NCBI GenBank assembly: GCA_035480035.1
Contig: DATIID010000001.1
Location: 265,323 to 329,322, forward strand
Reading direction: 5' to 3'
DNA from: Candidatus Saccharimonadales bacterium
Lineage (GTDB): Bacteria; Patescibacteriota; Saccharimonadia; Saccharimonadales; OMJO01
DNA: 64,000 bases
Under the pieces are notes generated by a model, which saw nothing but the letters and a program-made list of their open reading frames with translations, searched no databases and was not told the origin of the DNA. Shown in pieces: positions 2,459-64,000 of the stretch (position 1 is its first letter; every line of letters starts with the position of its first letter). Made by a program: the position numbers and the translations under genes.

Positions 2459-2486
2459 ACCACACCTTCGTGATAGAATGATTGAC

Positions 2487-5096
2487 ATGGCAAAGGGCGT
2501 CCCCCGGTTAATTAAACAATTTAAGCCAAACCATTACATTTTGGATTTGACTCTCGATAAAGCCAATCAAAAGTTTAGTGGCAGTGTAATTATTGCTGGG
2601 CATAAAGTTGGACGACCATCCAACCGTCTGACTTTTCATCAAAGCCATTTAAAAATTACGGCCTGTCAGATAACACATCACGACAAATCGGGTGATCAAA
2701 TCATCAAGATTGATAGAATTAATCATCATAAAAAATTTGATGAAGTACGACTACACTCTAATAAACCCTTCTACGGTGGCCAATACATAATTCGACTTGA
2801 TTTTATTGGCAAAATTACTCGCTCCATGAACGGGCTTTATCCATGCTTTTACGAAGACGACGGCACCAAAAAAGAATTGCTTGGCACCCAGTTTGAAAGC
2901 CACCATGCCCGCGAAGTTTTCCCATGTATTGATGAGCCCGAGGCGAAATCGACATTTGATTTAACCTTAAATAGCCCAGCTGACGAACTGGCGATTTCTA
3001 ATATGCCGATCAAAAATCAACAAACCACTCAAAGTGGTTTAATAACCGAGTTTGAGCAGACCCCGCACATGTCAACTTATTTATTAGCCTTTGTTGTTGG
3101 CGAACTTAGTTACAAAGAAGCTAAGACTAAGCAAGGCGTGGTGGTGCGAACTTATGCCACCAAACATAACATCGAATTTACCGAGTTTGCACTCGAGATC
3201 GCGGTCAAAATGTTGGACTTTTATAACGACTATTTTGGGATTAACTACCCATTGCCAAAGTGTGATTTAGCCGCTTTGCCTGATTTCGCGGCCGGCGCTA
3301 TGGAAAATTGGGGGCTTATAACCTTTCGCGAACATGCTCTATTGGTTGATCCGGCCAATACCAGCGTCGGCAGTAAACAATACGTCGCCATGGTGGTGGC
3401 TCACGAACTAGCTCATCAGTGGTTTGGCAACTTAGTGACTATGCGGTGGTGGACCGATTTATGGCTTAATGAAGGATTCGCAAGTTGGATTGAGTACTTG
3501 GCGGTTGACCATCTTTTCCCGGAGTGGCAGATGTGGACTCAGTTTATGGTCGAAGAGCAACAACCTGCTCTTAAAATGGATGCTCTTGAACACACCCATC
3601 CAATTGTTATGGATATCAATGACCCAAACGAAATCCGCTCAATTTTTGATGCAATTAGCTATAACAAGGGTAGTAGTGTTATCCAAATGCTACATGAATA
3701 CTTGGGCAAAGACGTATTTCGTGACGGCCTAAGACATTATCTACAAACCCACAAGTATAACAATACTAATACAATTGATTTGTGGTCAGCTTTGGAAACC
3801 ATTTCCGGTAAGCCAGTTAAGCAATTTATGAATAGCTGGACGGATCGAGCCGGTTATCCAATTATTAAAGCCAACATCAGTGAGCAGACCATCACATTAA
3901 GCCAAGAACGGTTTTATTCCAACCCCACTCACAGCGACGAAGCATCGGAAACCTGGCCAATCCCATTATTATCCGGGCATAGTCAAGTGCCAGAACAATT
4001 AGATAAAACCCATTTTGACTTTGAAATAAAAGACAGCGGCAATCTTAAATTTAATCAAGGTAGTAGTGGTTTTTATCGAGTCGTATATAACGCCACACAC
4101 CTTAATCGGCTTGGCGAGCTAATCCATCGGGGTAAGATTGGGCCAGTTGATCGATTGGGTATTTTAAGCGATAGTTTTGAAGCCGCCAAGGCCGGCTACA
4201 TTGCGACCATTGATGCCTTAGCACTATTAGAAAAGTTTGAGCATGAGGATAATTCGGCGGTTTGGGAAGTGATGGCCGCCAATCTTGGTGGCATCCGTAT
4301 GGTCATGGACAATGATAAGCTTCGTGAAGCAATGAAGCCCTACACCCGCCAACTTGTCGAAACCCAATTGAGCCGGTTGGGCTGGCAAACTAAATCTGAT
4401 GAGTCACATTTTGATCGTCTACTGCGTCCAACTATCCTTGGTTTGGCTTCTGTCAGTGATGAAACTAAAGTGGTCGAACGGGCTTTGAAATTATTTAAGA
4501 CCATGCATCAGCCAGAAGATATTTCGGCCGACCTGCGCCAAACCCCAAGCCGAAGTCAATTTAGAAGCGGTACTATTGATCCAGATCTTCGCGGCGTGGT
4601 CTATGGTACGGTTGCTAGAATTGGTGATAAAACTGATTTTAATAAGTTACTCGATATGCATAATGCTACCCAATCAGCAGAAGAACGTTTAAACCTAACG
4701 GCCGCCTTAACCGGCTTTAAACAACCAGCACTAATTAAGCAGGCCCTGGATTTAATAAAAACCGACACTGTTCGTTTGCAAGATATTACTTATTGGGTAG
4801 CCTATAGCTTCATGAATCGACATGCTAAATTATCAACCTGGGATTGGATGGTCGAAAATTGGGATTGGTTAAAACAAAATATGGGCTCTGATATGTCATT
4901 TTACCGCTTTCCAATTTATTCAGCACGATCGTTCAGCGACCTGACTTTCCTTAAAACTTATAAACAGTTTTTTGCTAAACATAACCAACCAGGTATGGAT
5001 CGTTCAATTAATCAAGGTATTGAGATCATTGAATGGCAGGCAGCTTGGAAAGAGCGCGATCTTAAGCTGATTAAAGCTTACTTCAAGGTTAAATAA
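2487..5096 (+). CDS. pepN: M1-family aminopeptidase N
   Basis: GAMENWG motif and the HELAHQWFGNLVTMRWWTDLWLNEGFA zinc site (HEXXH-18-E). The track ORF starts at 2478, but an extended -10 (TGaTAGAAT, 2471-2479) overlaps that ATG. ATG 2487 (MAKGV...) is therefore preferred; the start is uncertain by 9 nt. Confidence 0.93.
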   Translation: MAKGVPRLIKQFKPNHYILDLTLDKANQKFSGSVIIAGHKVGRPSNRLTFHQSHLKITACQITHHDKSGDQIIKIDRINHHKKFDEVRLHSNKPFYGGQYIIRLDFIGKITRSMNGLYPCFYEDDGTKKELLGTQFESHHAREVFPCIDEPEAKSTFDLTLNSPADELAISNMPIKNQQTTQSGLITEFEQTPHMSTYLLAFVVGELSYKEAKTKQGVVVRTYATKHNIEFTEFALEIAVKMLDFYNDYFGINYPLPKCDLAALPDFAAGAMENWGLITFREHALLVDPANTSVGSKQYVAMVVAHELAHQWFGNLVTMRWWTDLWLNEGFASWIEYLAVDHLFPEWQMWTQFMVEEQQPALKMDALEHTHPIVMDINDPNEIRSIFDAISYNKGSSVIQMLHEYLGKDVFRDGLRHYLQTHKYNNTNTIDLWSALETISGKPVKQFMNSWTDRAGYPIIKANISEQTITLSQERFYSNPTHSDEASETWPIPLLSGHSQVPEQLDKTHFDFEIKDSGNLKFNQGSSGFYRVVYNATHLNRLGELIHRGKIGPVDRLGILSDSFEAAKAGYIATIDALALLEKFEHEDNSAVWEVMAANLGGIRMVMDNDKLREAMKPYTRQLVETQLSRLGWQTKSDESHFDRLLRPTILGLASVSDETKVVERALKLFKTMHQPEDISADLRQTPSRSQFRSGTIDPDLRGVVYGTVARIGDKTDFNKLLDMHNATQSAEERLNLTAALTGFKQPALIKQALDLIKTDTVRLQDITYWVAYSFMNRHAKLSTWDWMVENWDWLKQNMGSDMSFYRFPIYSARSFSDLTFLKTYKQFFAKHNQPGMDRSINQGIEIIEWQAAWKERDLKLIKAYFKVK

Positions 5097-5430
5097 CCTC
5101 GATGAAGTTAATTGAATCAAAGTCCTGGCCACTAATTTCAATAGCCGATAGCACGTATTCGCCAGCCCAGTGGTGATGATTAACCCATAGTTCAGCCGAG
5201 TAGTTCATTTTGGCTTGCTTTTTAGTAGTTATGTAATCGAGGCCAAGGCCCTGACGATTGCCAGAGCGATATTTGACTTCAATGAAATGTATGGTCTGGT
5301 TTTTCTGAGCAATAATATCAATCTCACAATAGCGAGTTTTCCAATTTAGATCCAAGATCTGATAGCCAAGTTTTTTGAGATAGTCTGCCGCATATTTTTC
5401 GGCGTTGTGGCCGGCTGTATAATTAGTCAT
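5089..5430 (-). CDS. YraN-family (UPF0102) endonuclease-like protein
   Basis: 113 aa; GHNAEKYAADYLKKLGYQILDLNWKTRYCEIDIIAQKNQTIHFIEVKYRS matches the YraN pattern G..E..A..L...G......N......EID.I.......FVEVK.R. Confidence 0.8.
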   Translation of the reverse strand: MTNYTAGHNAEKYAADYLKKLGYQILDLNWKTRYCEIDIIAQKNQTIHFIEVKYRSGNRQGLGLDYITTKKQAKMNYSAELWVNHHHWAGEYVLSAIEISGQDFDSINFIEVI

Positions 5431-5992
5431 AGGTCAGGGCTTTTATCGGTTTATAGCTCAGCCGGTGGATAACACACGGTCCGAATTGCTTCAGTCGTTC
5501 CAAGTGTAGCTGCGTGCCATAGCCAACGTGTTGATCAAAGCCGTAATTCGGAAAAAGTTTGGCTTGATCATACATATGTTGATCGCGTAAAACTTTGGCG
5601 TAAATGCTGGCAGCACTGACAATCGGATGAAAGACGTCTGCATCAACAACCGCCTCAACATTTATATATTCACGTGGACAATAATTAATATGGCCATCAA
5701 TAATAATCTTTGAGTCAGGCTGAGCTTGGAGTTTGGCCAAAGCCCGTTTAACGCCTAATCTCATCGCCAGAGTGAGGCCTCTTTCATCAACCTCCGTCGA
5801 ACTAACCCAACCTTCACCGATTTGACAAGTCGTCTTGATTTGATCAAATAACCTCGTCCGCTGATTTCGACTGAGTAATTTAGAATCTTTTAAACCAACG
5901 GGTAGATTCAATCTAGCTTGGGCGGCTACAATTAACAGTGGACCAGCCCAACTACCACGTCCTACCTCATCAATACCAATGACCCTAATCAT
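5423..5992 (-). CDS. rnhB: ribonuclease HII
   Basis: 189 aa; N-terminal IGIDEVGRGSWAGPLLIVAA catalytic motif. There is an 8-nt overlap with the downstream yraN-like gene. Confidence 0.9.
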   Translation of the reverse strand: MIRVIGIDEVGRGSWAGPLLIVAAQARLNLPVGLKDSKLLSRNQRTRLFDQIKTTCQIGEGWVSSTEVDERGLTLAMRLGVKRALAKLQAQPDSKIIIDGHINYCPREYINVEAVVDADVFHPIVSAASIYAKVLRDQHMYDQAKLFPNYGFDQHVGYGTQLHLERLKQFGPCVIHRLSYKPIKALTYD

Positions 5993-6024
5993 CTAAGATC
6001 ATCTTATCAGAAATTAATAATTAA

Positions 6025-6564
6025 CTATTCTTCTTCAGCTGCATCTTTAGTAGTATCGCGGGCTTTAAGCGCCGCTTCAACTTTAGCATCAGCTTTGGCT
6101 TGGGTTTCGGCTTCTTTGGCGGCCTTAGCTTCGGCTTCTTTGGCGACTTGTTCATGCAGTTTTTCTTCTTCAGCTTCAGCATGTTCATCATGAATTTCAT
6201 TAACAGCCGCTACATCAAAACCAATGCCGGTTAAACGTGCAGATTTGCCGGTCAGTTTACGCATGTAGGTCAAATAGTTACGACGAACCTTACTGCGCTT
6301 GGTAACTTCAACCTTCAGAATCAGTGGGCTATGGAGTAAAAAGCTTTTCTCAACTCCGACACCGCTAGCTACCCGTCGAACGGTAATCCGACTCGAGGGG
6401 CTATTCTTTTTATCGGTTCGAATAACTAAACCTTGAAAAATCTGAACCCGCTCTTTGTTGCCTTCACGGATCTTTTGGTGGACTTTAACCACATCGCCAG
6501 AGCGCACATCAACCACTTGGCGTTTCTTATACTTTTCTTCAATTTGTTGAATTACCGAAGGCAT
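6025..6564 (-). CDS. rplS: 50S ribosomal protein L19 with a long Ala/Glu/Lys-rich C-terminal extension
   Basis: L19 core (VVDVRSGDVVKVHQKIREGNKERVQIFQGLVIRTDKK...RRVASGVGVEKSFLLHSPLI...VRRNYLTYMR) followed by about 65 extra low-complexity residues. Confidence 0.93.
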   Translation of the reverse strand: MPSVIQQIEEKYKKRQVVDVRSGDVVKVHQKIREGNKERVQIFQGLVIRTDKKNSPSSRITVRRVASGVGVEKSFLLHSPLILKVEVTKRSKVRRNYLTYMRKLTGKSARLTGIGFDVAAVNEIHDEHAEAEEEKLHEQVAKEAEAKAAKEAETQAKADAKVEAALKARDTTKDAAEEE

Positions 6565-6665
6565 AACCGATAAACTCTACCTGATTTAATTTCTTTCGTC
6601 AATTATACCATATCTGTTGTAAGAATGAAACACTCTGTAGCGGTCAAACCATTTACAATAAAACT

Positions 6666-7799
6666 ATGCAAGATTTTGCTAGTAAGGCCTTAACCGACCA
6701 TCAAAAGTTACGTGGCAAGTTAGCAATTAAGTTAAAAGACAATCTCGATACCCAAGACAAATTGAGTACTTATTACACGCCCGGTGTGGCCGCCGTGTCG
6801 AGTTATGTCGCCGAACATCCGCTCGAAGCCCGAGATTACACATGGATAAATAATAGCGTAGCTGTTGTCAGTGACGGTTCAGCCGTTTTGGGTTTAGGTA
6901 ATATCGGCCCACTTGGTGCCTTACCTGTCATGGAAGGCAAAGCGATGTTATTTAAGCATTTTGCTGACATTGACGCCGTCCCAATTGTGCTTAATGTTCA
7001 TACTGCTAATGAAATCGTAGCTACCGTTAAAGCGATCGCGCCTGGCTTTGGCGGGATTAATCTAGAAGACATTGCTGCGCCACTCTGTTTTGAAGTTGAA
7101 GACCGACTTAAGGCCGAGCTAGATATCCCAGTTATGCACGACGACCAACACGGTACGGCTGTCGTAGTGCTCGCCGGTCTAATAAATGCTGCTAAAGTCA
7201 CAAAGCGTAAATTAAGTAATGCTCGAGTGGTAATTGTTGGCTCCGGGGCCGCCGGTACAGCTGTAACTAAACTACTCTATCAATATGCCCAACCTAAAAT
7301 TATTGCTGTTGATTCGCGGGGCATTATAAATCATGAGCGTAAAGACTTGAACGAAGATAAGACCAGGCTGCTTGATTATTTATATGATGCTAAAACCGGC
7401 TCTCTTGAGGATGCCATGACTGGTGCCGACATTTTTATTGGTGTATCCAGGGCTAATTTAGTCACTGGCGCCATGGTTGAGTCCATGGCTAAAAAGCCGG
7501 TCATTTTTGCGATGGCCAATCCAATACCAGAAATCATGCCAGATGCCGCCAAAATAGCCGGCGCGGCTATAGTCGCGACTGGTCGAAGCGATTTTCCAAA
7601 TCAAGTTAATAATTCCTTGGCGTTTCCGGGCATTTTTCGTGGAGCGCTCGATAACCATATCACTCACATTACCGACGAGCACAAAATTGCCGCCGCTGAA
7701 GCTATTGCTGGACTCGTTAGACAGCCGACAGCCGACAAGATTATTCCAAGTGTGCTCGAAAAGCGCCTGGTCCCGACTGTCGCTAAAGTAATTACTTAA
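6666..7799 (+). CDS. NAD(P)-dependent malic enzyme (short form, no PTA-like domain)
   Basis: 377 aa; motifs [64 protein letters not shown] and VGSGAAGTA. Confidence 0.9.
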
Positions 7800-8062
7800 G
7801 CAATATTTTTATTGCTGGAGTTTAGTAAATCGTTTCTTTCTTTTTCTGTTAGGCCGGCCCATATGCCAAACCCGTCCGATGCCTCAAAGCATTGACGCGC
7901 AACAATACAGCCAGCGCAGATCCGTTTAGCTTTGGCTTCGCGGGCGACCTTGTCGTCATGCAGTTCAGTCCGACCATTTTCCGGACCATAAAATACTTCA
8001 GTTAGTTCTTGATTAAAACACGAACCATCTTTTATCCAGCTCCTGTCAGTTGTCGGTCTCAT
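7796..8062 (-). CDS. WhiB-like (Wbl) Fe-S transcriptional regulator
   Basis: 88 aa with four Cys in Wbl spacing (C15; C49-x2-C52-x5-C58 in RICAGCIVARQC), followed by the GIWAGLTEKER turn motif. Confidence 0.8.
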   Translation of the reverse strand: MRPTTDRSWIKDGSCFNQELTEVFYGPENGRTELHDDKVAREAKAKRICAGCIVARQCFEASDGFGIWAGLTEKERNDLLNSSNKNIA

Positions 8063-8099
8063 AGCGTACCTTAAATATATAACTTCTGCTCAGATTTCA

Positions 8100-9704
8100 C
8101 TAGCCAACCACGCGGAAGACTTCGTCGAGCGTGGTTAAGCCTTGGCAGGCCTTAAGAATTCCATCCTGCATAATGGTACTCATACCACTTTTGATAGCTG
8201 CAGCTTCAATGTCTTGAGTCGACAATATAGTATTAGCTTGCTCGAGCAACTTGCGAATTTCGCCGGTCATTAAAAACTGCTCCCGGACGGCCATTTGACC
8301 ACTAAAACCAAACGGGTTGTCCTCGGACTTACCGGGCACATAGAATTGTGTGCTGTTAAGGTCAGGCCTCTCCATGCCTTCAGGTAAAGTGTCAATTACT
8401 GATTGAACTCTTTTTATAGTGGCTTCCTCGGGTTGATAAGTTTGCTTTGTTTTATCATCCAAGCGCCGGACTAAACGCTGGGCCATAACCAAGCGAATGG
8501 CTGAAACAAATAGCGGGTTAGTGCCAATCACGTCCATCATTCTAGTCAAGGCGGCAGAGGCCGATGAGGCGTGAAAAGTTGACAACACCAAGTGTCCAGT
8601 TAAAGAAGCCTGAAGTGCAGTGCGAGCTGTGTCAGTATCACGGATCTCACCAACCATAATAATATCCGGATCAAGCCGGAGTACGGCTCGAAGTTCTTCG
8701 GCAAAACTAATCTTGGTGGTATTAAGACCAGTTACCGACACTTGAGTGATGCCTGGGAATTGATACTCAACCGGATCTTCAATTGTAATAATTTTGCGGT
8801 TTTCGTTATTTAAGGTGTTGAGCATTGAGTAAAGAGTGGTCGTTTTCCCAGATCCGGTTGGTCCGACAATCAGCACCAGACCACTAGGTTTAGTAATAAT
8901 ATCGTCGACCACAGCGCGTTCCCTTACCGACAAACCAAGTTTATCGAGGTTGTACATAGTTTGGTCGAGATTGAATAAACGCATAACGATATCCATGCCG
9001 TTAATGCTGGGCACGGTTTCTAAACGTAAATTAATATCAACCTCTGAACCATCAAGCATCTTTACTTTGGTTGACATGTGACCCTGTTGAGGTTGTGTTG
9101 CGTAAGTTGATATATTGCCGCCACTGGCAATGGCTGAGATCACAATGTGATATTTAGCTGGTGTTATTTTGGCGATTGGGTGCAAAACCCCGTCAATTCG
9201 AAAACGAATCCGAACATGATCGCGCTGACATTCCATGTGAATATCAGAAGCATTCAAACGGTGAGCTTGTTCAACCAAATAGGCTAAAACGTCGTCAGCC
9301 TTAACTTGCTCTAAGGTTGCAGATACTGTCTTAAGTAAATCCGGACTGTCAGTTTGAGATAATGCAATATCCTGATAAACCACCTCTTTGGGTGGATCAT
9401 ATAGCTTCATGTATTCGCGGTAACCAGTGTCCGAAATTAATGCGAAGCTAACACGCTGATCTTGAAAACGCTGACGTAGCGACATAAGTGTCTGTTGGGA
9501 CGTAGTGTTAGTAATCCCAAAGTTAATGTTATGTTCATCAGCGGTGATTGGTATGATGCGTAAATCGTATAACTCACGCACCGACAGGAGTTGTTTATAC
9601 AGTTGTTTGTTGGGAACTGTTGACGTATCAACATAATCTAGGCCAAGTATTTCGGCCCGTCTTTGAGTCGACCTCTCCTCATCTAAGCGAGCGTTTTGAG
9701 ACAT
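8100..9704 (-). CDS. pilB: type IV pilus / type II secretion ATPase (GspE/PilB family)
   Basis: 534 aa with a T2SSE N-terminal domain, Walker A GPTGSGKTTT, IIMVGEIRD (Walker B/Asp box region) and GHLVLSTFH (His box). Confidence 0.9.
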   Translation of the reverse strand: MSQNARLDEERSTQRRAEILGLDYVDTSTVPNKQLYKQLLSVRELYDLRIIPITADEHNINFGITNTTSQQTLMSLRQRFQDQRVSFALISDTGYREYMKLYDPPKEVVYQDIALSQTDSPDLLKTVSATLEQVKADDVLAYLVEQAHRLNASDIHMECQRDHVRIRFRIDGVLHPIAKITPAKYHIVISAIASGGNISTYATQPQQGHMSTKVKMLDGSEVDINLRLETVPSINGMDIVMRLFNLDQTMYNLDKLGLSVRERAVVDDIITKPSGLVLIVGPTGSGKTTTLYSMLNTLNNENRKIITIEDPVEYQFPGITQVSVTGLNTTKISFAEELRAVLRLDPDIIMVGEIRDTDTARTALQASLTGHLVLSTFHASSASAALTRMMDVIGTNPLFVSAIRLVMAQRLVRRLDDKTKQTYQPEEATIKRVQSVIDTLPEGMERPDLNSTQFYVPGKSEDNPFGFSGQMAVREQFLMTGEIRKLLEQANTILSTQDIEAAAIKSGMSTIMQDGILKACQGLTTLDEVFRVVG

Positions 9705-9762
9705 AAAGCTTATTATAAAGCATAAGCATCGCCATCTGGAAGTATTCTGCTACTATCAAGTT

Positions 9763-10269
9763 ATGAATCGCCAAATTGTCTTAATTGTCCATAATTTGCG
9801 CAGTTGCCATAATGTCGGTGCGATATTTAGAACAGCCGACGGTTTAGGCATCAATCACCTTTATTTAACCGGTTATACACCATATCCGATTTCCAAAACT
9901 GATCAGCGATTACCGCACCTTCGTCATCAAATCAATCAAAAAATCCATAAGACGGCATTGGGCGCCGAAAATACAATTAAATGGTCGCATATTGAAATAA
10001 TTGACACCGTTATCGATAAGCTACGTCGACAAAACTTCGCTATTATCTCACTTGAGCAAGCTAAAAAGTCAACTAATTTAGTAACCTATCAACCGCCTAA
10101 CAAGATTGCAGTCATAATTGGTCGCGAGATCGGGGGTATCGAGCCAACCATCCTCGAACAAACAGATGTGACTTTAGAAATACCAATGTTTGGTCAAAAG
10201 GAGTCATTTAACGTTGTCGAAGCCGCGACTATGGCACTTTACCACTTTCGCTTCTATACCCAAAACTGA
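9763..10269 (+). CDS. SpoU/TrmH-family RNA 2'-O-methyltransferase
   Basis: 168 aa; motifs NVGAIFRTADGLGINHLYL, IGREIGGI and IPMFGQKESFNVVEAATMALYH. Confidence 0.85.
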   Translation: MNRQIVLIVHNLRSCHNVGAIFRTADGLGINHLYLTGYTPYPISKTDQRLPHLRHQINQKIHKTALGAENTIKWSHIEIIDTVIDKLRRQNFAIISLEQAKKSTNLVTYQPPNKIAVIIGREIGGIEPTILEQTDVTLEIPMFGQKESFNVVEAATMALYHFRFYTQN

Positions 10270-10290
10270 CAAATATGTTATTATTCGGTT

Positions 10291-46625: not shown

Positions 46626-46634
46626 ACTAAGCAA

Positions 46635-52390: not shown

Positions 52391-52398
52391 TTAGTTAA

Positions 52399-52450: not shown

Positions 52451-52456
52451 TGCAAA

Positions 52457-52888: not shown

Positions 52889-52905
52889 GAAAGGAGCAGG
52901 AGCGG

Positions 52906-53036: not shown

Positions 53037-53077
53037 AGCATAGGCCTTTTACGACTTACCGACAAGTCTTGAAGATT

Positions 53078-53680: not shown

Positions 53681-53713
53681 AAGCAGTAATAATTATAGCC
53701 TAAACTGATTGGG

Positions 53714-54958: not shown

Positions 54959-55008
54959 GCTTTTATTCTATAACTCCACCTGTTAATACGAAACCCCAAC
55001 GGACCTAC

Positions 55009-55037
55009 AAAAAAGAACCCTTTCGGGTTCTTCTTTG
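55009..55037 (-). terminator. rho-independent terminator downstream of the SDR gene
   Basis: Minus strand reads GAACCC-GAAA-GGGTTC followed by TTTTTT. The stem is extendable to 8 bp. Confidence 0.8.
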
Positions 55038-55148
55038 TTCACTCTAGTCCTATTGCTAGAACCATCGCTAGTCACCTCACGATGACAATTACCACTATAA
55101 ACCGCTATTTAAGCCTTGTCAAATACTTTTTTATATTTCATAAAATGC

Positions 55149-56618: not shown

Positions 56619-56691
56619 TATTAAGTAGTATTTTACCTTATTTGTGCCAGTTGGTCAATATTCTAGTTTGATAGCTTTTTAGATAATGTAC

Positions 56692-56720
56692 TGGACAAAA
56701 TCGCTCATTGGTAGTATATT
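56692..56720 (+). promoter_or_regulatory. sigma70-type promoter of the LPXTG mini-gene
   Basis: TGGACA (56692-56697), 17-nt spacer, TATATT (56715-56720). The leader carries palindrome TGCGAA-T-TTCGCA (56734-56746) and SD GGAGAG. Confidence 0.6.
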
Positions 56721-56771
56721 AACTTAAAAGGGTTGCGAATTTCGCAGCTTATTTATTTAAGGAGAGATTAA

Positions 56772-56963
56772 ATGTACGGAAAAGTCGCAGGTACTTCAAC
56801 AGTTATCACCGGTGCAGCTGGTGTTAAATTATTGCCTAACACTGGCGGCACCCGCGTTATGTTTATCGTATCAGTTACTTTGTTAACTGTCGGTGTGGTA
56901 ATGTTTGCCTTATCAGCTTTCGGCGCCTTAAAGCGTCGGGTTTACAATTTTTTGTATTCTTAA
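56772..56963 (+). CDS. 63-aa protein consisting essentially of an LPXTG sortase sorting signal
   Basis: MYGKVAGTSTVITGAAGVKL-LPNTG-GTRVMFIVSVTLLTVGVVMFALSAFGAL-KRRVYNFLYS is motif, hydrophobic helix and basic tail. It has its own promoter, a strong SD and a strong terminator, but no N-terminal signal peptide. Confidence 0.7.
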   Translation: MYGKVAGTSTVITGAAGVKLLPNTGGTRVMFIVSVTLLTVGVVMFALSAFGALKRRVYNFLYS

Positions 56964-56971
56964 ATCTAAAT

Positions 56972-57022
56972 AAAAAAAACTTAGCCCAACTGTTCGACAC
57001 GATCAAGTTGGGCTATTTTATT
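56972..57022. terminator. bidirectional rho-independent terminator
   Basis: An A8 run (56972-56979) precedes the 10-bp stem TAGCCCAACT (56982-56991) / AGTTGGGCTA (57006-57015), which is followed by TTTTATT. Confidence 0.8.
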
Positions 57023-57159
57023 ACCTTGACGGCTAAGAAGGTTATATAAACCTGATACAGTAAATAAACCACGGTGATTACAAACAAACTGCCACCACCC
57101 AAGCGTTTAGCAAACCGTTTGAGACGTGGTTTTAGTTGCGTTGGTAGCTCGTAGTTCAT
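57013..57159 (-). CDS. 48-aa single-TM protein, translationally coupled to the GT2 synthase (not in the ORF track)
   Basis: Own translation: MNYELPTQLKPRLKRFAKRLGGGSLFVITVVYLLYQVYITFLAVKVIK*. The ATG overlaps the GT2 TGA (ATGA, 57156-57159), and the stop lies in the terminator stem. Confidence 0.55.
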   Translation of the reverse strand: MNYELPTQLKPRLKRFAKRLGGGSLFVITVVYLLYQVYITFLAVKVIK

Positions 57160-58457
57160 ATAGCTACATCCTTCAAGGCATTGGCATCAAGTGCAAAACG
57201 ACGACCTTCGGTGCCCCAACCAACAGTGTGGCTTTTGAAACGCTTTAAGATGATAATTTCGATAAATGCCCAGATAAAAATGCCCATCTCAACCCACCTC
57301 AGAAAGTAGTAGTACGGTAAGGCTTTAAGAATTGATAGACGTTTAGTCACAGTCGACGAAAAGATAGCCAGAACTGATACAACTAAGAAATCAGCTGCTA
57401 AAACACCTAACAATATCTCCCAACGACCGGTTTTATAGATCAGATAAGGCACAACTATACCCATTTCAATGACATAGGTTAAGAATTGGAACAAGACGTA
57501 GCCAATACTTAGATCTATCAACTGCAAACGTTGGCCAATCTTATAATTACGAATGCATTGGAAGAAACCGCGTTGCCACCTCAAAGTTTGTTTACAAAAA
57601 TCGCGTAGCGTTTGCGGATCCTGGGTATAATTAACTGCTTGAGTAATGAACATAATACGGCCCAGTTTCTTGCGGTGAATCTGCAGCGTCAGGTCAAAAT
57701 CTTCGGTGATGGTACCAGTCAAAAAGTCTAGTTTGCTCAAAATATCAGTCCGAAAACAGGTGGTTGGTCCAGGCAAAACCGCAATCATGCCAAACCATGA
57801 CTGCCAACGCCGGATAACTTGCTGGCCGTAAGTGTAAGAAAAAGCCCGGTAGTTGGCAATCCAGTTGCCGCGCAAACTCTGGACAAAGCCAACAGCTGCC
57901 ACATATTTACCTTCTTTTAGAGCAGCTCGATAGATATTAAAATAATTTTCACCAAAGACGCTGTCAGCATCGCTAACATGTAGCCATTGATAACGTTTTT
58001 CAAAGTCAAAATGTTTAATGGCATGATAAATCGCCTTGGCTTTACCGCTACGCTCCACTGTTAACACGTTACTTTCACCGAGCATTGCGACAGCCTGAAA
58101 CCATGTGGCATCAGTCGAGGCATCATCGACAACGTAAATATCGGCTTTGTCCATCCCGGCATTTATGGCCGTTTGAATGGTAGTTTGGATGATTAACTCT
58201 TCGTTATGGCCAGGCAGTAATAGTGCTAATTTACGTTTTTCGGGTTGAGTTGGCTTGTTGAAGCCGACAAAGGTAGCTAACCGTTTAATCCAGCCATTAT
58301 TATCAAAGTTACGAACCGAACGCAGTGGCGGCAACGAATAGTTATGCCTGGGTAAATCGGCTTGACCACGGCTTGAAACATACCTTTCATCAGGTACAGA
58401 GAAATCATTGCGACGCCGAATTGCAACCGGTTCGCGCACCTCATAGCCACTATCCAT
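57156..58457 (-). CDS. processive family-2 glycosyltransferase (PgaC/IcaA/chitin-synthase-like)
   Basis: 433 aa; VVDDASTD, the HVSDADS (DxD) motif, TEDFDLT, and KQTLRWQRG (the QxxRW motif), plus C-terminal TM helices. A TATAAT box lies 7 nt before the ATG. Confidence 0.85.
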   Translation of the reverse strand: MDSGYEVREPVAIRRRNDFSVPDERYVSSRGQADLPRHNYSLPPLRSVRNFDNNGWIKRLATFVGFNKPTQPEKRKLALLLPGHNEELIIQTTIQTAINAGMDKADIYVVDDASTDATWFQAVAMLGESNVLTVERSGKAKAIYHAIKHFDFEKRYQWLHVSDADSVFGENYFNIYRAALKEGKYVAAVGFVQSLRGNWIANYRAFSYTYGQQVIRRWQSWFGMIAVLPGPTTCFRTDILSKLDFLTGTITEDFDLTLQIHRKKLGRIMFITQAVNYTQDPQTLRDFCKQTLRWQRGFFQCIRNYKIGQRLQLIDLSIGYVLFQFLTYVIEMGIVVPYLIYKTGRWEILLGVLAADFLVVSVLAIFSSTVTKRLSILKALPYYYFLRWVEMGIFIWAFIEIIILKRFKSHTVGWGTEGRRFALDANALKDVAI

Positions 58458-58513
58458 GAAGCTTATTATACCGTTTTTTTACTTATTTAGCAACTTTGTA
58501 CTGTGGTAATTAT

Positions 58514-59092
58514 CTAAACCAGATATTTATGGAGGATCTGGAGTATTCGATCATGGTGAGTTGAGTAAAAAACCAGATTAAAAACTAGTAATAAGGGGAA
58601 AACGCCAAACGTTTCTACAATATGCCCGGTGGTCAGTCGCAATGATTTAAGTGGTGGAAAGCCAAATTTAATTGGGATGGGTAGCAGCCACGGTACACCT
58701 TGTTTGGTAAAGCTGTCCATTACCAGATGAGATAAGGCGCCGATCATAAATGCCCACCAAACCAAACCAATATCAATACCATGCATTATTGGATGGAGCC
58801 AGACTAACAGCCAATGAGCACCGTAACCGACTAATGCCAAACCAAACAACGAATGGGTAATAAACCGGTGTCCACCCAGTAATTTGTCAATAAATTTGCC
58901 GAAGAAACCACCGACCGGTAGGTTGCGCCAAAAAGGCGCGGTTGGCTGGTCAATATCCGGTGTAATACCGCCAATCAAATTGGCAAGCACCGCTGCAATT
59001 AGAGTTGTCAGGGTAATTAGCTGTTCCGGTCGAACAACAAAAACCACTCCCAGCGCTGTTACGGCAGCTAAATCATGAGTTCGAGCAGTCAT
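58514..59092 (-). CDS. YdjM/DUF457-type membrane-bound metal-dependent hydrolase
   Basis: 192 aa, polytopic; THDLAA, ITPDIDQP, HRFITHS and SHLVMDSFTKQGVPWLLP motifs. Confidence 0.7.
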   Translation of the reverse strand: MTARTHDLAAVTALGVVFVVRPEQLITLTTLIAAVLANLIGGITPDIDQPTAPFWRNLPVGGFFGKFIDKLLGGHRFITHSLFGLALVGYGAHWLLVWLHPIMHGIDIGLVWWAFMIGALSHLVMDSFTKQGVPWLLPIPIKFGFPPLKSLRLTTGHIVETFGVFPLLLVFNLVFYSTHHDRILQILHKYLV

Positions 59093-59097
59093 GTCTA

Positions 59098-59733
59098 TTA
59101 GAGGCTTGTAACACTTTTTTGCGTGCTGTCTGACAGCGTATAAGTCAAAGTAAATTTAGTACACTCGTTACCGGGTGTGTTGTCGCATGCCGAGCCATCA
59201 TCTTTGATGGGCGCATAGCCATACTGAGTTGTGGTCGAGGAAGCCAGGAATTGGTTCGACGTACCGTCAGGGTCTTTTGTTGCTTCTTTGTCTAATCCCT
59301 TGAGGTTGGCAGCTATCCAGGCAGCGTCATTCATGTTAGCGAAGGTTGGGTACATCGCATTGTTAGCATTGAAAGTCTCTAGGTGACTGGCCACGGCTTT
59401 GATGTCGGTTTCTCGCTCTGTGTCTTTAGCGTTAGCAGCTATTAGGTCACCAGAGCTAGTATCAGTCGCTGTATTCGCGGCCGATTGTAAATCTTGAATT
59501 TTTTTATCATCGTCCGATAGCTGTTTATTAAGTTTGGTAATAGTGCCGTTTAGGTCATTAACTTTGGACTGTTGCATGAACCAAACACCACCTATGGCCG
59601 CCGCAATTAACACCACGACGAGCACGATCATGATTAGTTTCTTCTTGGATTTGGGCGGTGCCGGGTAGCCACCAGGTGGCGGGAAACCATCAGACGCATA
59701 GCCGTATTGTTGAAAGTTTTTTTGTGGGTTCAT
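59098..59733 (-). CDS. bitopic membrane protein with a pilin/pseudopilin-head-like ectodomain (paralog A)
   Basis: A P/G/Y-rich N-terminus, one TM and a coiled linker are followed by ERETDIKAVASHLETFNANNAMYP...KDP...YGY...C-x7-C-TKFTLTYTL. Start moved to ATG 59733 (GAGGT SD, TATAAT at fwd 59755-59750); the track GTG at 59748 is too close to the -10. Confidence 0.65.
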   Translation of the reverse strand: MNPQKNFQQYGYASDGFPPPGGYPAPPKSKKKLIMIVLVVVLIAAAIGGVWFMQQSKVNDLNGTITKLNKQLSDDDKKIQDLQSAANTATDTSSGDLIAANAKDTERETDIKAVASHLETFNANNAMYPTFANMNDAAWIAANLKGLDKEATKDPDGTSNQFLASSTTTQYGYAPIKDDGSACDNTPGNECTKFTLTYTLSDSTQKSVTSL

Positions 59734-59833
59734 TTTTACCTCTAGCACGATTATACCTTAAGCACTATAATTGCGTAACAATTTGCTATAGCCGTCAGTT
59801 ATCGTTGATGTTAGAGTAGTCCTAGGAACTATC

Positions 59834-60646
59834 ATGGATCAAGATGATTCACCTCTAGGCGGACCTTTGGAATTACCCGGCGAAGAATCGCCGTCGACTC
59901 ACCCTGTTAATAAATCACCACGCCGCTTTAACCCGAAAATATTAATCATTATTCTATTAGTCATTGTCGGCTTAGCTGGAGTTGGTTTTGGCGCTTATAA
60001 ACTCATGCATAAGTCGAAACCGAAAAATACTACTCCTACTTCGACAAGTTCTAACTCCACCACCACTTCTCAAGAGCCAACAGTCACCGATGTACCGACC
60101 GTAACCGGCACCAAGGACTATAAAAATACTAGTCTGGGTGTCGAGCTGACCTATCCGGATGGCTGGCAAATCACCGTCAGCGACAAGGCATCTGACGGCA
60201 TCAAACTAGAATCCCCAACCTTTAATTATGAAACCACCGATGTCGGTATCGTATCGGGGAATTTTCGAGTCTATATTCGAGCTGGGGCACGTCCAGTCGA
60301 TAGCAAGTACATCGGTCGCGGCGTGGCCATAACAAGCTCACAGCCTTTAACCTACACCTCGCCATTAGCCACCCAGCGCAAAACTACTAATTTATCACTG
60401 TTTGGTCTCGACACACCCGACCAGTTCGCCTTTTTCTTGATTGCCGGTAATTTCAACCTGAAAAAGGGCGACACGTTGGGCCCAAACTACGGTAAAGAAC
60501 CAGAAACTATTTTAGTCACCGGCGGTTATTCAGCCAAAGAGTTAAAAGATGATTTTCAAACTAACCAAGTACCGTTAAGTAGTTATAGTAGTACTAATGC
60601 TTACAAACAAGCCATCGATATCGTTAAATCTTTGAAACTTCAGTAA
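59834..60646 (+). CDS. hypothetical bitopic surface protein
   Basis: 270 aa with an acidic N-terminus, a TM (ILIIILLVIVGLAGVGFGAY), an S/T-rich linker, and a beta-rich ectodomain containing YPDGW. Confidence 0.6.
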   Translation: MDQDDSPLGGPLELPGEESPSTHPVNKSPRRFNPKILIIILLVIVGLAGVGFGAYKLMHKSKPKNTTPTSTSSNSTTTSQEPTVTDVPTVTGTKDYKNTSLGVELTYPDGWQITVSDKASDGIKLESPTFNYETTDVGIVSGNFRVYIRAGARPVDSKYIGRGVAITSSQPLTYTSPLATQRKTTNLSLFGLDTPDQFAFFLIAGNFNLKKGDTLGPNYGKEPETILVTGGYSAKELKDDFQTNQVPLSSYSSTNAYKQAIDIVKSLKLQ

Positions 60647-60665
60647 TTATGGTATAATATAGTTT

Positions 60666-60911
60666 ATGAATAGTTTTGAAAGACCCCTAGATTTGGTTGA
60701 AGAGCTCTTCCCCAGTGAAGAATCAATTGATAGCATACGAGAATCAAAGCCCGGTTTTATCACCCCAGAAACTCATCCTCACGCTACACCTAGTGAGATT
60801 AGACGTAGTTATGAGACTGACACTTATGAAACCGGACCAGATACAGTGCCGACGGTGGACGATCTAGTTTTAGTTTCTAAAATCGGTCGTTTTATTCGAC
60901 GACAAAAATAA
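60666..60911 (+). CDS. small acidic hypothetical protein (81 aa)
   Basis: An extended -10 (TGgTATAAT, 60650-60658) lies 7 nt before the ATG. There is no TM or signal peptide, and the tail is basic (RFIRRQK). Confidence 0.5.
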   Translation: MNSFERPLDLVEELFPSEESIDSIRESKPGFITPETHPHATPSEIRRSYETDTYETGPDTVPTVDDLVLVSKIGRFIRRQK

Positions 60912-61141
60912 TGGAAAACATCAATAACAATCAAGGCGAAGATAATGTATTAGACCGGGTTTTCGGTGGCGAGCCAGAAGTCAGCGAAGAAGCATTAGAC
61001 AATTATTGCCGTAATAAAAATCCTTATGTCGCCTCCGCCAGGTCATTTTCGGCTCGCAATAATGCTACCGCCAATGCAGATACAGCTACAGATACCGATA
61101 TTAACCCTTTGATCGACGACTACCTAGACGATTTAGTTTAA
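60911..61141 (+). CDS. small acidic hypothetical protein (76 aa)
   Basis: The start overlaps the upstream stop (TAATG). Asp/Glu/Asn-rich, with no TM. Confidence 0.5.
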   Translation: MENINNNQGEDNVLDRVFGGEPEVSEEALDNYCRNKNPYVASARSFSARNNATANADTATDTDINPLIDDYLDDLV

Positions 61142-61146
61142 CTTTA

Positions 61147-61812
61147 TTACCTTGTGCTAGTACTGTCGGCCGGCGCTGAAGTTGGATTACTCTTAACACT
61201 TTTCTGAGTGCCGTTTTCTAGAGTGTACGTTAGGGTGAATGTCACACAGGCGTTAGTGTCGCCATTGTCGCAATCTTGACCGCTTGAATTCAGCGGACGA
61301 TAGCCGTATTGGCCTTTGACTGAGGTTTCGGCAAAATCGTAACCAGATCCAGATGGATCGCGTGTCAATTCTTTTTGCAGACCCGGCATGCTATTAGATA
61401 TCCATGTGGGATCGTTTAAATCAGCGAGTGCTGGATAGTAGGTGTTATTTTGGTAGAAAAGTTCAAGTAAAGTATCGATTGACTTTATATCTGTTACGCG
61501 CTCAGAATCCCGACCAGCAGCTGTTGGATCTTTTTGGCTAGTCGGGGTGTTTGAAGCCGCTGGATTTTGATTCCCAGTTGAATTGGATGACGTATTGTTT
61601 TTATTTCCAGACGCTAGTGCCCAAACTACTCCTGCGGCCAAGATCAACAAGAGTACGGCGGCTACGATAATGAATTTTTTTGGAGATCTCGACTTACCCA
61701 TTTGAGAGTAGGCTATCGACGGTTGTGAAGAATCGGGACTAGTTGGTAATGCCTGTCCGCTAGAGTATTGAGACATGTCGTCAATAGGATTCTTGGCTTT
61801 GTTATTAAGCAT
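61147..61812 (-). CDS. bitopic membrane protein with a pilin/pseudopilin-head-like ectodomain (paralog B)
   Basis: 221 aa; same architecture as 59098-59733: SERVTDIKSIDTLLELFYQNNTYYP...RDP...YGY...C-x7-C-VTFTLTYTL...TQKSV. A TAATAT box lies 6 nt before the ATG. Confidence 0.65.
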   Translation of the reverse strand: MLNNKAKNPIDDMSQYSSGQALPTSPDSSQPSIAYSQMGKSRSPKKFIIVAAVLLLILAAGVVWALASGNKNNTSSNSTGNQNPAASNTPTSQKDPTAAGRDSERVTDIKSIDTLLELFYQNNTYYPALADLNDPTWISNSMPGLQKELTRDPSGSGYDFAETSVKGQYGYRPLNSSGQDCDNGDTNACVTFTLTYTLENGTQKSVKSNPTSAPADSTSTR

Positions 61813-61919
61813 ATAAATATATTAATTCTTACGTTAAATAATATATCAATTATGTGGCTATGTTGATATAGCTTAAGTTTTTCAGCTGTTTGTCAGTTTG
61901 ATATTCTATAAACACTATT

Positions 61920-62396
61920 ATGGTAAAAGATGAAGATTTAAATAAGGCAAGTACTGCTCATGATCATGACCATTATCATGGTATGTACGCCCACCACCAT
62001 GGCCACAAGCTTTTGTTAGCCTTGGTAGGTGTTTTAGTTTTATTAATGGTTTTTTGTTTTGGTATGGCGGCTCAGCGGGTTCACCGCGAACCGGCGATGA
62101 CTTTTGGCAAGTTCGGCGGTATTGGTATGACAGGGCCACGTAGTGTACATATGGGTCGAGGCTTCGGCTTTAACAATCCAAACGCAGCGGCGTTGACCGG
62201 CAAAGTGACAGCGGTTAATGGCACTAGTTTTACGCTTGATCAAAACGGCTCCAGTAAAACAATCAAGACTGATGACAAAACCGCCTTTGGCGGCGTTGGC
62301 ATCAACGGCTTGAAGACCAATGACCAAGTCACCATTGTTGGTACTACCAACTCCGACGGCTCCGTCCAAGCTTCTGACGTCAGAGTAATCAATTAG
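61920..62396 (+). CDS. His-rich, membrane-anchored protein with a DUF5666-like beta domain
   Basis: 158 aa; AHDHDHYHGMYAHHHGH, then a TM, then GKVTAVNGTSFTLDQNGSSKTIKTDDKT...NDQVTIVGTTNSDGSVQASDVRV. Confidence 0.6.
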   Translation: MVKDEDLNKASTAHDHDHYHGMYAHHHGHKLLLALVGVLVLLMVFCFGMAAQRVHREPAMTFGKFGGIGMTGPRSVHMGRGFGFNNPNAAALTGKVTAVNGTSFTLDQNGSSKTIKTDDKTAFGGVGINGLKTNDQVTIVGTTNSDGSVQASDVRVIN

Positions 62397-62794
62397 TTAT
62401 TGTATAGAGCTTTTCTCACAGCTATGTGGTTGAGAATACGGACATCGCTCTCAAGCTCGGGGTCTAATCTGATAAGCTGATCCATCTTCTTGTTATTTGG
62501 AGTTTTGGCAGCCATTAAGGCCAACTGGTCATCATCAGAGCATCTAACAAATCTGTATGTAATTTTTTGTTCTAAAATACCGCTTGGTTCAAGTTCAACA
62601 TATCGGCGCGACACCACATACAGGGAATCTTTAGCTAGTGTATACGGCGTAAAATCATAAGCTGCCCCAGGTAATGGGTCACTGCCAATCGATTCTAAAG
62701 ATTTATCCAATACAAGTTTAAGAGCACCGGCCAGCACGAAATCTTCAAATTCATCCATTTCACCATCGATTGATAAACGAGCAGTTTCAGACAT
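62393..62794 (-). CDS. hypothetical protein (133 aa)
   Basis: ORF with a TTAAAT box 7 nt before the ATG. No motif recognised. 4-nt convergent overlap with 61920-62396. Confidence 0.5.
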   Translation of the reverse strand: MSETARLSIDGEMDEFEDFVLAGALKLVLDKSLESIGSDPLPGAAYDFTPYTLAKDSLYVVSRRYVELEPSGILEQKITYRFVRCSDDDQLALMAAKTPNNKKMDQLIRLDPELESDVRILNHIAVRKALYNN

Positions 62795-62832
62795 GCAAGC
62801 AATTTAAACAATTTATATAAAAATTGGCAAGC

Positions 62833-63126
62833 TCAAGCTAGATGGCTTGTTAGCAGTGTTAACAACACCAAAATCCCTATTAACCGTCGAAAGTAATTAA
62901 TCCCGTTATAAACTTCGAGTACTGCCCAAATAATTAGGGCTAATAATGATATGTAACTCAGGCCAGAGCGCAGCCAATTAGTGTGAATAAACCAGTTGCC
63001 CACCATTGTCAGAAACCAGGTACTTAGATAGACGTTGGGTTTTTGCCAAATAACGAAATTGCCATGGCCATCTTCCCAGAATTTCTGGCTGAATGATTGA
63101 TTCTTTGGTCTCCGCTCTCTTACCAT
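62833..63126 (-). CDS. hypothetical small membrane protein (97 aa)
   Basis: Two or three Trp-rich hydrophobic helices. A TATAAT box (fwd 63138-63133) lies 6 nt before the ATG. Confidence 0.55.
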   Translation of the reverse strand: MVRERRPKNQSFSQKFWEDGHGNFVIWQKPNVYLSTWFLTMVGNWFIHTNWLRSGLSYISLLALIIWAVLEVYNGINYFRRLIGILVLLTLLTSHLA

Positions 63127-63186
63127 AAGCCAATTATACTCTTACTATTTAAGGTTTTAATCGTGCTTCTACTCTATAATAGTAGC

Positions 63187-64000
63187 ATGGAACAGAGGCC
63201 TTTAGCGGAGCGGATGCGACCGCAAAAATTGGATGACGTAGTTGGTCAAGAACATTTATTGACCAGTGGTGCGATTATTCGCGAAATTATCAACAAGCAA
63301 CAACCGACCAGTTTGATCTTGTGGGGACCGCCAGGTAGTGGTAAAACTACACTCGCAAGGATTATCGCCAAAGAAACAGGTGCCGAATTCGTCGAGCTTA
63401 GTGCAGTAACGTCCGGTAAAGCAGATGTAACTAAAGTTATCGAACATGCCGAAGGCAATCAAAGGCTTGGTCAGCAGACAATTTTGTTCGTCGACGAAAT
63501 TCACCGTTTTAACAAAGCCCAGCAAGACGCCTTTTTGCCACATGTTGAAAAAGGCACAATTACTCTGATTGGCGCCACAACTGAAAACCCCAGTTTTGAA
63601 ATTATTAATCCCCTGCTCAGCCGTAGCCGAGTACTGGTACTGGAACCGCTTAGTAAAAACGAGATTATCAAAATCATAAAATCTACGGCCAAGGCCGAAA
63701 AAATTCCAGCCAAACTCTTGCCAGCTAAAAGCATCGATCTACTAGCTGAATTATCCGGCGGTGACGCTAGAGTGGCGCTCGGCAACTTAGAATTGGCTCT
63801 ACAACTAACCAAAGGCACAATTACGCCGGAAATTGTCGAAACCGCCGCCCAAAAACGAGTGCCCGGCTATGACAAAAAAGGTGAATACCATTACAACGTC
63901 ATTAGCGCCTTTATCAAAAGCATGCGCGGCAGTGACGCCAACGCTACACTGTATTATTTGGCTAGAATGCTCCAAGCCGGTGAAGACCCTAAATTTATTT
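63187..64000 (+). CDS. rarA: replication-associated recombination protein A (RarA/MgsA), N-terminal 271 codons; runs off the window
   Basis: Not in the ORF track. Own translation: [25 protein letters not shown]...[19 protein letters not shown]...[47 protein letters not shown] box (63175-63180) lies 6 nt before the ATG. Confidence 0.92.

Follow-up and report, generated by a model that had tools for sequence, protein, structure and literature searches.

Among the genome classes recognized by GeneMarkS-2, group C is marked by a Pribnow box lying 6-8 nt upstream of the start codons of operon-leading genes and by a leaderless share of 25-50% of transcripts (PMC6028130). Group C is common among Actinobacteria (90%) and Deinococcus-Thermus (97%) but seldom seen elsewhere, and the text of the GeneMarkS-2 paper does not mention the Candidate Phyla Radiation (CPR) (PMC6028130). 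Here we describe an arrangement of this kind in a 64,000-nt stretch of DNA (the window) from a Candidatus Saccharimonadales bacterium (Saccharibacteria; TM7; CPR/Patescibacteria), contig DATIID010000001.1, positions 265,323-329,322. Many genes that lead a transcription unit in the window carry a -10 hexamer 6-9 nt before the start codon, and we consider it very probable that these hexamers belong to sigma-70-type promoters that start transcription at, or no more than about 3 nt from, the AUG of genes translated without a Shine-Dalgarno (SD) sequence. The motif keeps its position, is confined to leading genes, has been conserved from gene to gene and occurs across the lineage.

The likeness to group C, and to Actinobacteria such as M. 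tuberculosis, M. smegmatis, Streptomyces and Corynebacterium, extends to the position of the box, the leaderless share and the use of SD sequences by the remaining leading genes and by internal genes. Unlike the high-GC Actinobacteria of group C, however, the Saccharibacteria are CPR organisms of 37-55% GC with ultrasmall, reduced genomes; the extended TGn element carried by a third of their sites may be a further difference. In Deinococcus deserti, as summarized in the GeneMarkS-2 paper, the majority of mapped transcripts are leaderless (167 of 262) and, as here, the start codon immediately follows the -10 box (PMC6028130). That case was established by differential RNA-seq (dRNA-seq) and proteogenomics, whereas the Saccharibacteria case is predicted from sequence.

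Two other classes bear a partial resemblance. In archaeal genomes of group D the start codon forms the beginning of the mRNA, as is proposed here, and the internal genes of operons likewise use SD sequences, but the box lies about 26 nt upstream (PMC6028130), whereas the window has no signal near -26 and its element is a bacterial -10 box. Group B (Bacteroidetes) shares an A/T-rich non-SD motif near many start codons, but there the motif precedes every gene, internal genes too, which excludes a promoter (PMC6028130), whereas here it belongs to leading genes only.

In the full-text literature we found no paper linking leaderless expression to Saccharibacteria, TM7, Patescibacteria or CPR, although supplementary tables may hold a classification; as the NCBI pipeline uses GeneMarkS-2, one may also exist implicitly in annotations. 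The nearest literature consisted of a remark on YchF (PMC12641178) and a promoter survey that uses transcription start sites (TSSs) of TM7x and does not discuss leaders (PMC12641261); all other matches lay in reference lists. The present case is a new lineage for a known architecture, and is moderately surprising rather than categorically new.

Results

The window has a GC content of 43%, and a tRNA scan and an Rfam scan of it returned no tRNA and no Rfam RNA. We scored the -10 box as TANNNT, that is T(-12), A(-11) and T(-7), and defined the gap as the number of nucleotides between the hexamer and the start codon. A start-blind set of 67 genes comprised the longest non-overlapping open reading frames (ORFs), chosen without regard to the motif, and the gap profile was drawn on the 48 leading genes whose upstream spacer was 15 nt or longer, with 16 internal genes as a comparison. 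A second set with curated starts comprised 52 genes able to lead a transcription unit and 15 internal genes. For the comparative material, a UvrB search gave as its nine best relatives metagenome-assembled genomes (MAGs) of Candidatus Saccharibacteria/Saccharimonadales (71-83% identity, with gene order conserved), while the next UvrB matches, at no more than 64% identity and from Firmicutes, Chloroflexi and others, served as controls, with loci of similar GC. A PheS search gave 73 metagenome contigs, which originate from soil, rhizosphere and groundwater; most of them matched over the full length at 55-79% identity. The Saccharibacteria samples were nine genome loci, 36 non-redundant metagenome loci (452 kb) and a pool of 50 non-redundant loci.

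In the start-blind set, the gap profile showed a single sharp peak at a gap of 6 nt (14 genes). The hexamer stood at 6-9 nt in 26 of 48 leading genes but in only 1 of 16 internal genes, and the other 4-nt bins held 11-21 genes beside the peak, dropping to 3-10 beyond 16 nt. A test over all ATGs of the window gave a similar picture: 29 of the 184 ATGs with TANNNT at 6-9 nt came first in an ORF of 80 codons or longer, compared with 50 of the 1892 ATGs lacking the box (Fisher odds ratio 6.9, p = 2.6e-12). When the gap bins were shifted, 6-18 such ATGs were counted instead of 29. An earlier reading of this DNA, made from the letters alone (the sequence-only reading), had proposed looking for a positional -10 peak next to the ATG, and such a peak is present at gap 6 in the window.

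Among the 52 unit-leading genes with curated starts, 27 were leaderless-like, 14 (about 27%) SD-leadered and six unclear, while five had a box at gap 5, 10 or 11 and would have very short leaders at most. Since TANNNT has a background of about 10-14% per 4-nt bin, some 5-6 of the 27 leaderless-like genes may be chance. Leaderless-like genes are nevertheless the largest single class, at about 40-50% of units, so that the claim of the sequence-only reading that most leading genes are leaderless was somewhat generous.

The signal is not confined to the window. With start-blind calls, TANNNT at 6-9 nt was found at 52% of leading genes in the window, at 27% in the nine Saccharibacteria genome loci and at 38% in the 50 non-redundant loci. 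In the 36 metagenome loci it was carried by 41% of leading genes (103/251). The controls, where SD sequences dominate, had it at only 4% (26/632; odds ratio 16, p = 3e-40). As the signal is present in Saccharibacteria loci spanning 37% to 55% GC, it is not a by-product of AT-richness. Internal genes carried the box in 6% of cases in the window and 3-9% in the relatives, and 38-59% of them (window and relatives) had an SD 4-mer 4-11 nt upstream. Internal operon genes have either a GGAG-type SD, as had been noted before, or a stop/start overlap of -1, -4 or -8 nt.

To characterize the motif itself, we collected 149 sites from the 50 non-redundant loci, chosen only on the T, A and T positions. 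The free positions, T(-10) in 47%, A(-9) in 70% and A(-8) in 58% of sites, reproduced the TATAAT consensus, and the commonest hexamers were TATAAT, TATACT and TACAAT. There was also an extended -10 element, with G(-14) in 58% and T(-15) in 46%; TGn occurred in 49 of the 149 sites (33%), compared with 6% expected, which bears out the extended boxes already remarked on in the window. A -35 match of at least 4/6 was found in 31% of sites, against 18% in shuffles, with T at -35 in 48%, and the base at -1 before the start codon was a pyrimidine in 64%. Information content was near zero around -26 to -30, and an archaeal-type, group D arrangement was rejected on this ground. In a comparison of intergenic with coding 8-mers, GGTACAAT, GCTATACT, GGTATAAT and similar words came out on top, with SD words (TAAGGAGA) next; the top words hold the -10 hexamers TACAAT, TATAAT and TATACT, usually with a preceding G.

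The arrangement is kept from gene to gene across the relatives. In de-duplicated counts, orthologues of six leaderless-class genes (uvrB, gatC, pheS, yajQ and the genes starting at 48678 and 39884) had the box at 6-9 nt in 76 of 102 cases and an SD in only two, which agrees with the earlier observation that SD sequences are missing at these starts. Orthologues of SD-class genes (glutaredoxin-like, ppa, gap, fba, FKBP and dnaE) gave the reverse, with a box in 4 of 68 and an SD in 53 of 68. In ten Saccharibacteria genomes, TACAAT, TATACT or TATAAT stands 6-9 nt before the ATG (once GTG) of uvrB; the box is kept in 9/9 orthologues and the sequence upstream of about -15 has diverged. For gatC, TGnTATACT or TATAGT lies 7-11 nt before the ATG in 8/8 orthologues. 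The pheS orthologues have the box at 6-9 nt in 23 of 35 cases, at 5-11 nt in 31 of 35 and an SD in one of 35, and the pheS arrangement was seen in the great majority of the about 45 metagenome contigs listed. For yajQ, 14/18 orthologues likewise have a -10 box at 6-9 nt, as do 10/15 orthologues of 39884 (SD in none), and the arrangement was kept in 13/17 orthologues of the glucosylglycerate-hydrolase-like gene at 48678. Because the flanks turn over around a fixed box, the predicted initiation mode is a conserved property of each gene, though not wholly fixed, as trxB, with its mixed orthologues, indicates.

Three low-GC metagenome contigs with a distant PheS (L144, L150 and L151; 30-35% GC, PheS 42-45% identical) had the box at 6-9 nt at 13 of 21 leading genes, although the background for the box is higher in such AT-rich DNA. 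Their leading genes had no SD 4-mer at 4-11 nt upstream, and the internal genes of L150 that were printed likewise lacked one. These contigs may represent a related lineage still less reliant on SD sequences, and they hint that some relatives may have dispensed with the SD entirely.

The start codons are consistent with this arrangement. In 21 of 25 leaderless candidates the ATG is the first possible start past an in-frame stop. Only two of the 25 have a downstream in-frame start with an SD-type 4-mer at 4-12 nt, namely a conserved internal Met of RarA (codon 10) and a TTG at codon 18 of the gene at 51628. NCBIfam models align almost from the first residue: residues 3-652 of UvrB match model positions 1-652 of 653, residues 5-92 of GatC positions 2-88 of 93, residues 3-185 of RNase HII positions 3-186 of 188, residues 3-165 of YajQ positions 3-163 of 164 and residues 4-435 of the glucosylglycerate-hydrolase-like protein positions 5-440 of 442. 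Furthermore, in the orthologues of uvrB, gatC and pheS the N-terminal residues are conserved from codon 1.

Three longest-ORF starts (2478, 34438 and 59748) are probably wrong, and the sequence-only reading had already moved them to 2487, 34459 and 59733. The first two corrections are plausible, because the ATG of the longer ORF at 2478 falls within the TAGAAT hexamer and the longest-ORF TTG at 34438 precedes the TATAAT box. The third does not hold as a leaderless start, because TATAAT is followed by 16 nt with AGAGG and only then by the ATG at 59733, a short SD leader (59731-59755, minus strand; the GTG at 59748 lies 1 nt past the box). Other uncertain ORF starts in the window are those at 15518, 15753, 25771 and 46530/46627. 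The last two belong to long ORFs on opposite strands (46530 plus, 46627 minus) whose 5' ends overlap by 98 nt, with no recognizable -10 box or SD at either longest-ORF start; at least one of these two predicted starts is mis-assigned.

All 20 box/ATG pairs of the sequence-only reading lie where it had placed them; in each the start is an ATG and the gap measures 6-9 nt. As -10 boxes, 18 carry the sigma-70 signature T-A-N-N-N-T, while the other two lack the last T; these, TAATAG (50041-50055) and TATAAA (61907-61922), both on the plus strand, are weak examples of unclear class without the invariant T(-7). On the plus strand, TGaTAGAAT stands 7 nt before the ATG of an M1-family aminopeptidase (PepN-like) gene (2471-2489), TACAAT 6 nt before that of a malic-enzyme-like gene (6654-6668) and TGcTACTAT 6 nt before that of a SpoU/TrmH-family RNA methyltransferase gene (9748-9765). 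The ATG of a YkwD/CAP-domain protein gene is preceded at 6 nt by TGtTATTAT (10276-10293), a promoter within the 21-nt gap behind the upstream gene. TACAAT with a gap of 9 nt (15802-15819) has a -35-like hexamer, TTGCAA, 16 nt upstream of the box. A flavin-reductase-like gene follows TATAAT by 7 nt (34446-34461), the glucosylglycerate-hydrolase-like gene follows TATACT by 7 nt (48665-48680), a Fur/Zur-family regulator gene follows TGtTAAAAT by 6 nt (52442-52459) and an 81-aa ORF follows TGgTATAAT by 7 nt (60650-60668). Last on this strand is TATAAT, 6 nt before the ATG of a gene for a RarA/MgsA-like ATPase (63175-63189) whose ORF exceeds the window end.

On the minus strand, a pilB/GspE-type ATPase gene has TATAAT at 7 nt (9702-9717), gatC, the first gene of gatCAB, has TGtTATACT at 8 nt (20044-20063), uvrB has TGcTACAAT at 6 nt (23080-23097) and pheS, the first gene of pheST, has TGtTATAAT at 9 nt (43532-43552). 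A ZupT-like zinc transporter gene has TATAAT at 8 nt (52388-52404). The box of a GT2 glycosyltransferase gene, TATAAT at 7 nt (58455-58470), is accompanied by a -35 hexamer, TTGCTA, 17 nt upstream. Two further ATGs are preceded at 6 nt by TAATAT (61810-61824) and by TATAAT (63124-63138). Three of these minus-strand genes diverge from plus-strand partners of the same class, with ATG-to-ATG distances of 58 bp (9704/9763), 60 bp (63126/63187) and 66 bp (52390/52457); the median divergent spacer is 88 bp in the Saccharibacteria loci and 192 bp in the controls.

Several sites can be added to the earlier list. On the minus strand these are TGaTAAGAT, 8 nt before the ATG (5992) of the RNase HII gene (5990-6009); TGtTAAGCT, a weak hexamer 7 nt before ATG 39884 (39882-39900); TGgTACAAT, 6 nt before ATG 51628 (51626-51643); TAGAAT, 6 nt before the ATG (54958) of a trehalase-like gene (54956-54970); and TAAATT, 6 nt before ATG 62794 (62792-62806), with a TTGCCA -35 hexamer 18 nt upstream of the box. 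On the plus strand, yajQ has TAAGAT at 6 nt (45071-45085) and lies 14 nt behind the upstream gene.

The contrasting, SD-leadered set comprises gap, fba, ppa, the glutaredoxin-like gene, the purF-like gene, nusA and dnaE, with 5' leaders of about 10-40 nt. In four of these (gap, ppa, glutaredoxin-like and purF-like) the box is 25-42 nt upstream of the start. On the minus strand, TACAAT is followed by 41 nt with a GGGGG SD and the ATG of gap, encoding GAPDH (33096-33145), by 31 nt with an AAGGAG SD and the ATG of ppa, encoding inorganic pyrophosphatase (33700-33739), and by about 42 nt with an AAGGGG SD and the ATG of the glutaredoxin-like gene (36947-36997). On the plus strand, TATAAT is followed by 25 nt with a TAGGAG SD and the TTG start of the purF-like gene (43622-43655). 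Among orthologues, gap has an SD in 9/13 and a box at 6-9 nt in 1/13, ppa an SD in 7/7, and the glutaredoxin-like gene an SD in 16/18 and a box at 6-9 nt in 0/18. The minority with SD leaders named in the sequence-only reading stands for nusA, gap, dnaE and the purF-like gene and is less clear for trxB, of whose orthologues 4/15 have the box at 6-9 nt and 7/15 an SD. The dnaE gene is SD-leadered in the window (14958) and in most relatives; in one relative (L003, 14197) TACAAT stands 8 nt before its ATG without an SD, an instance of a gene switching class. The leader of nusA (1217-2374, minus strand) has a 9-bp G+C-rich hairpin followed by TTTTTT just before a GAGGA SD (2398-2419), which could be an attenuator or a terminator remaining from the upstream unit.

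Discussion

We infer the positions of transcription starts and the mode of translation from the sequence, and propose that about 40-50% of transcription units would be driven by sigma-70-type promoters with a strong, often extended -10 box (TGnTAYAAT) and a weak -35 element. The commonest gap, 6 nt, corresponds to the canonical spacing of 7 bp between -10 box and TSS, a distance reported across bacteria in a promoter survey (PMC12641261). RNA polymerase holoenzyme would start at the A of the ATG or no more than about 3 nt away from it, and the mRNA would begin with its start codon. If so, the ribosome must engage an AUG at the very 5' end, using initiator tRNA but no SD pairing. In E. coli, mycobacteria and Deinococcus, leaderless translation uses 70S ribosomes, or 30S subunits together with initiation factor 2 (IF2) and initiator tRNA. 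The downstream genes of the same operons would be served by GGAG-type SD sequences or stop/start overlaps. The leaderless interpretation put forward in the sequence-only reading gains support from the sigma-70 -10 box with TGn, its canonical spacing, the ATG as first start, the alignments to family models and the conservation among orthologues.

It is improbable that these genes instead have ordinary or short leaders on which the hexamer acts at the RNA level, as an A/U-rich non-SD ribosome-binding or enhancer element like that of group B in Bacteroidetes. Such an element would fit the A/T-rich composition of the hexamer, its siting where a ribosome-binding site (RBS) would be, the lack of SD sequences at these genes and the gaps of 9-13 nt at some of them. 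However, the group B motif precedes all genes (PMC6028130), while the hexamer is found here at 52% of leading and 6% of internal genes; a group B-type genome with non-SD RBSs was rejected on this restriction to leading genes and on the SD sequences of internal genes. T(-12), A(-11) and T(-7), together with TG at -15/-14 in 33% of sites, are the signature of contacts between RNA polymerase and DNA, and therefore argue against a binding motif on the RNA. Moreover, the same motif lies 30-40 nt upstream of SD-leadered genes, and divergent pairs 58-66 bp apart leave no space for two further upstream promoters. A second possibility, that the promoters are real but that translation begins at a downstream codon, with the box-adjacent ATG being only the 5' end of a leader, draws on the facts that starts were inferred from ORFs and that a few window ORFs have uncertain ones. 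We consider it very improbable, given that only two SD-preceded downstream starts were found among the 25 candidates, that full-length family models align from residues 2-5 and that N-termini are conserved from codon 1.

The least probable explanation is chance, that is, AT-rich intergenic DNA combined with freedom in picking starts. TANNNT is loosely defined and has a background of 10-14% per 4-nt bin, three starts had been re-chosen to fit and 2 of the 20 original boxes are weak, but start-blind calls keep the peak at gap 6, the all-ATG test gave p = 2.6e-12 with shifted bins at background, and equal-GC controls stand at 4%. Since the free positions still give TATAAT and TGn, and orthologues conserve the arrangement, an origin in chance or composition is effectively refuted.

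Several points nevertheless weigh against leaderless initiation, or against its extent. Generic scans for TTGACA-N16-18-TATAAT did not discriminate promoters from background, with 40 sites in 1-20000 (40.6 in shuffles) and 46 sites in 44001-64000 (41.5 in shuffles), although several of the best hits of the two-hexamer scan (63133, 58465 and 52399) are leaderless-like promoters. Start-codon usage, as an independent test, was uninformative, because ATG accounts for about 90% in either class. The gap is 8-9 nt in 62 of the 149 sites, and certain orthologues of pheS and gatC have gaps of 11-13 nt; where the gap is 8 nt or more, the leader may be about 1-6 nt long rather than absent. Leaders of 1-5 nt are usually counted as leaderless. 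Some window calls have weak hexamers (TAAGCT, TAGAGT and TAATGT) and are the likeliest to be chance, and the p-values computed over orthologues ignore phylogenetic relatedness. Finally, the only set of Saccharibacteria TSSs that we found, 188 sites from N. lyticus TM7x, is inferred from RNA-seq coverage and noted by its source to be imprecise (PMC12641261).

On balance, we lean slightly towards the view that leaderless expression is class-wide in Saccharibacteria, assigned gene by gene and conserved, and possibly wider in CPR/Patescibacteria, which would make this the third large bacterial lineage of its kind after Actinobacteria and Deinococcus-Thermus. If so, there would be a radiation in which at least 40% of transcription units have no 5' untranslated region (UTR). 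Gene finders that rely on SD sequences misplace start codons in leaderless-rich genomes, and because CPR genomes are nearly all automatically annotated MAGs, their N-termini, signal-peptide predictions and small-ORF calls would be affected. Saccharibacteria have recently become genetically tractable, and TGnTATAAT placed 6-7 nt before an ATG, if it is the native signal, would be a simple design rule; the two classes also tell which native promoters carry a leader. Furthermore, another leaderless-rich lineage, with reduced ribosomes and living on Actinobacteria that are themselves leaderless-rich, bears on whether this mode is ancestral or repeatedly derived. By function, repair, tRNA-charging and pilus genes are leaderless-like while glycolysis and redox genes are SD-leadered, which suggests that the two initiation modes serve different expression regimes.

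Other features of the window and its relatives

Apart from the -10 and SD words, the only 8-mer strongly enriched in intergenic DNA across the 50 loci was AGCATAAG(C), with 20 intergenic and 24 coding occurrences (p = 2e-9). In the window it lies at 9719-9727, 27468-27475 (minus strand), 28494-28502 (minus strand) and 48640-48648, and in relatives at L085:6441-6480, L145:18490-18530, L005:1009, L102:7434, L106:7635 and L133:15199. It is found mostly with SD-leadered genes (gap, fba, a pfkB-family kinase gene and the glutaredoxin-like gene), often 2-9 nt downstream of the -10 box and hence at the start of the leader. Sometimes two copies stand about 23 bp apart around the -10 box (L085 and L145), and sometimes the element takes the form ATGCTgaaaAGCAT, as in the 28476/28532 spacer of the window. 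We regard it as a candidate operator of a regulator or a candidate 5'-leader element. The word GCATAAGC occurs nine times in the window, with 2.5 expected, and is enriched specifically in intergenic DNA. Its interpretation as a high-copy repeat was rejected, as it occurs 2.8 times per 100 kb in Saccharibacteria and 1.6 times in controls (about 1.7-fold), like permuted 8-mers.

Between the divergent ZupT-like and Fur/Zur-family genes (52391-52456), and overlapping both promoters, lies TTGCGACAAATTTGCAA, a candidate Zur box; the orthologous spacers have counterparts in gcgacaaatttgcaa (L111) and ttgcaaattagtcgcaa (L082). The best two-hexamer match of the window, TTGACA-17-TATAGT (11/12; 55094-55122, minus strand), is placed between the stop of the 55149-56618 gene and a hairpin terminator (55013-55032). 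This match may be chance, or may be the promoter of an RNA about 80 nt long, and an Rfam scan at 55013-55122 gave no match.

Among the relatives, one contig (L002, DATJJV010000050.1) bears the name 'Candidatus Pristimantibacillus sp.', a genus within the Paenibacillaceae. Yet it encodes a UvrB with 82% identity to the UvrB of the window and matches the gene order of Saccharibacteria loci for about 20 kb, so that the contig has probably been mis-binned or its MAG mislabelled.

Finally, the 537-nt gap at 56619-57155 contains a 63-aa ORF (56772-56963, plus strand) with LPNTG, then a hydrophobic stretch and then KRR. These make up a sortase sorting signal to which hardly any passenger domain is attached. 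Upstream of this ORF are a promoter-like site (56692-56720) and a hairpin (56730-56750).

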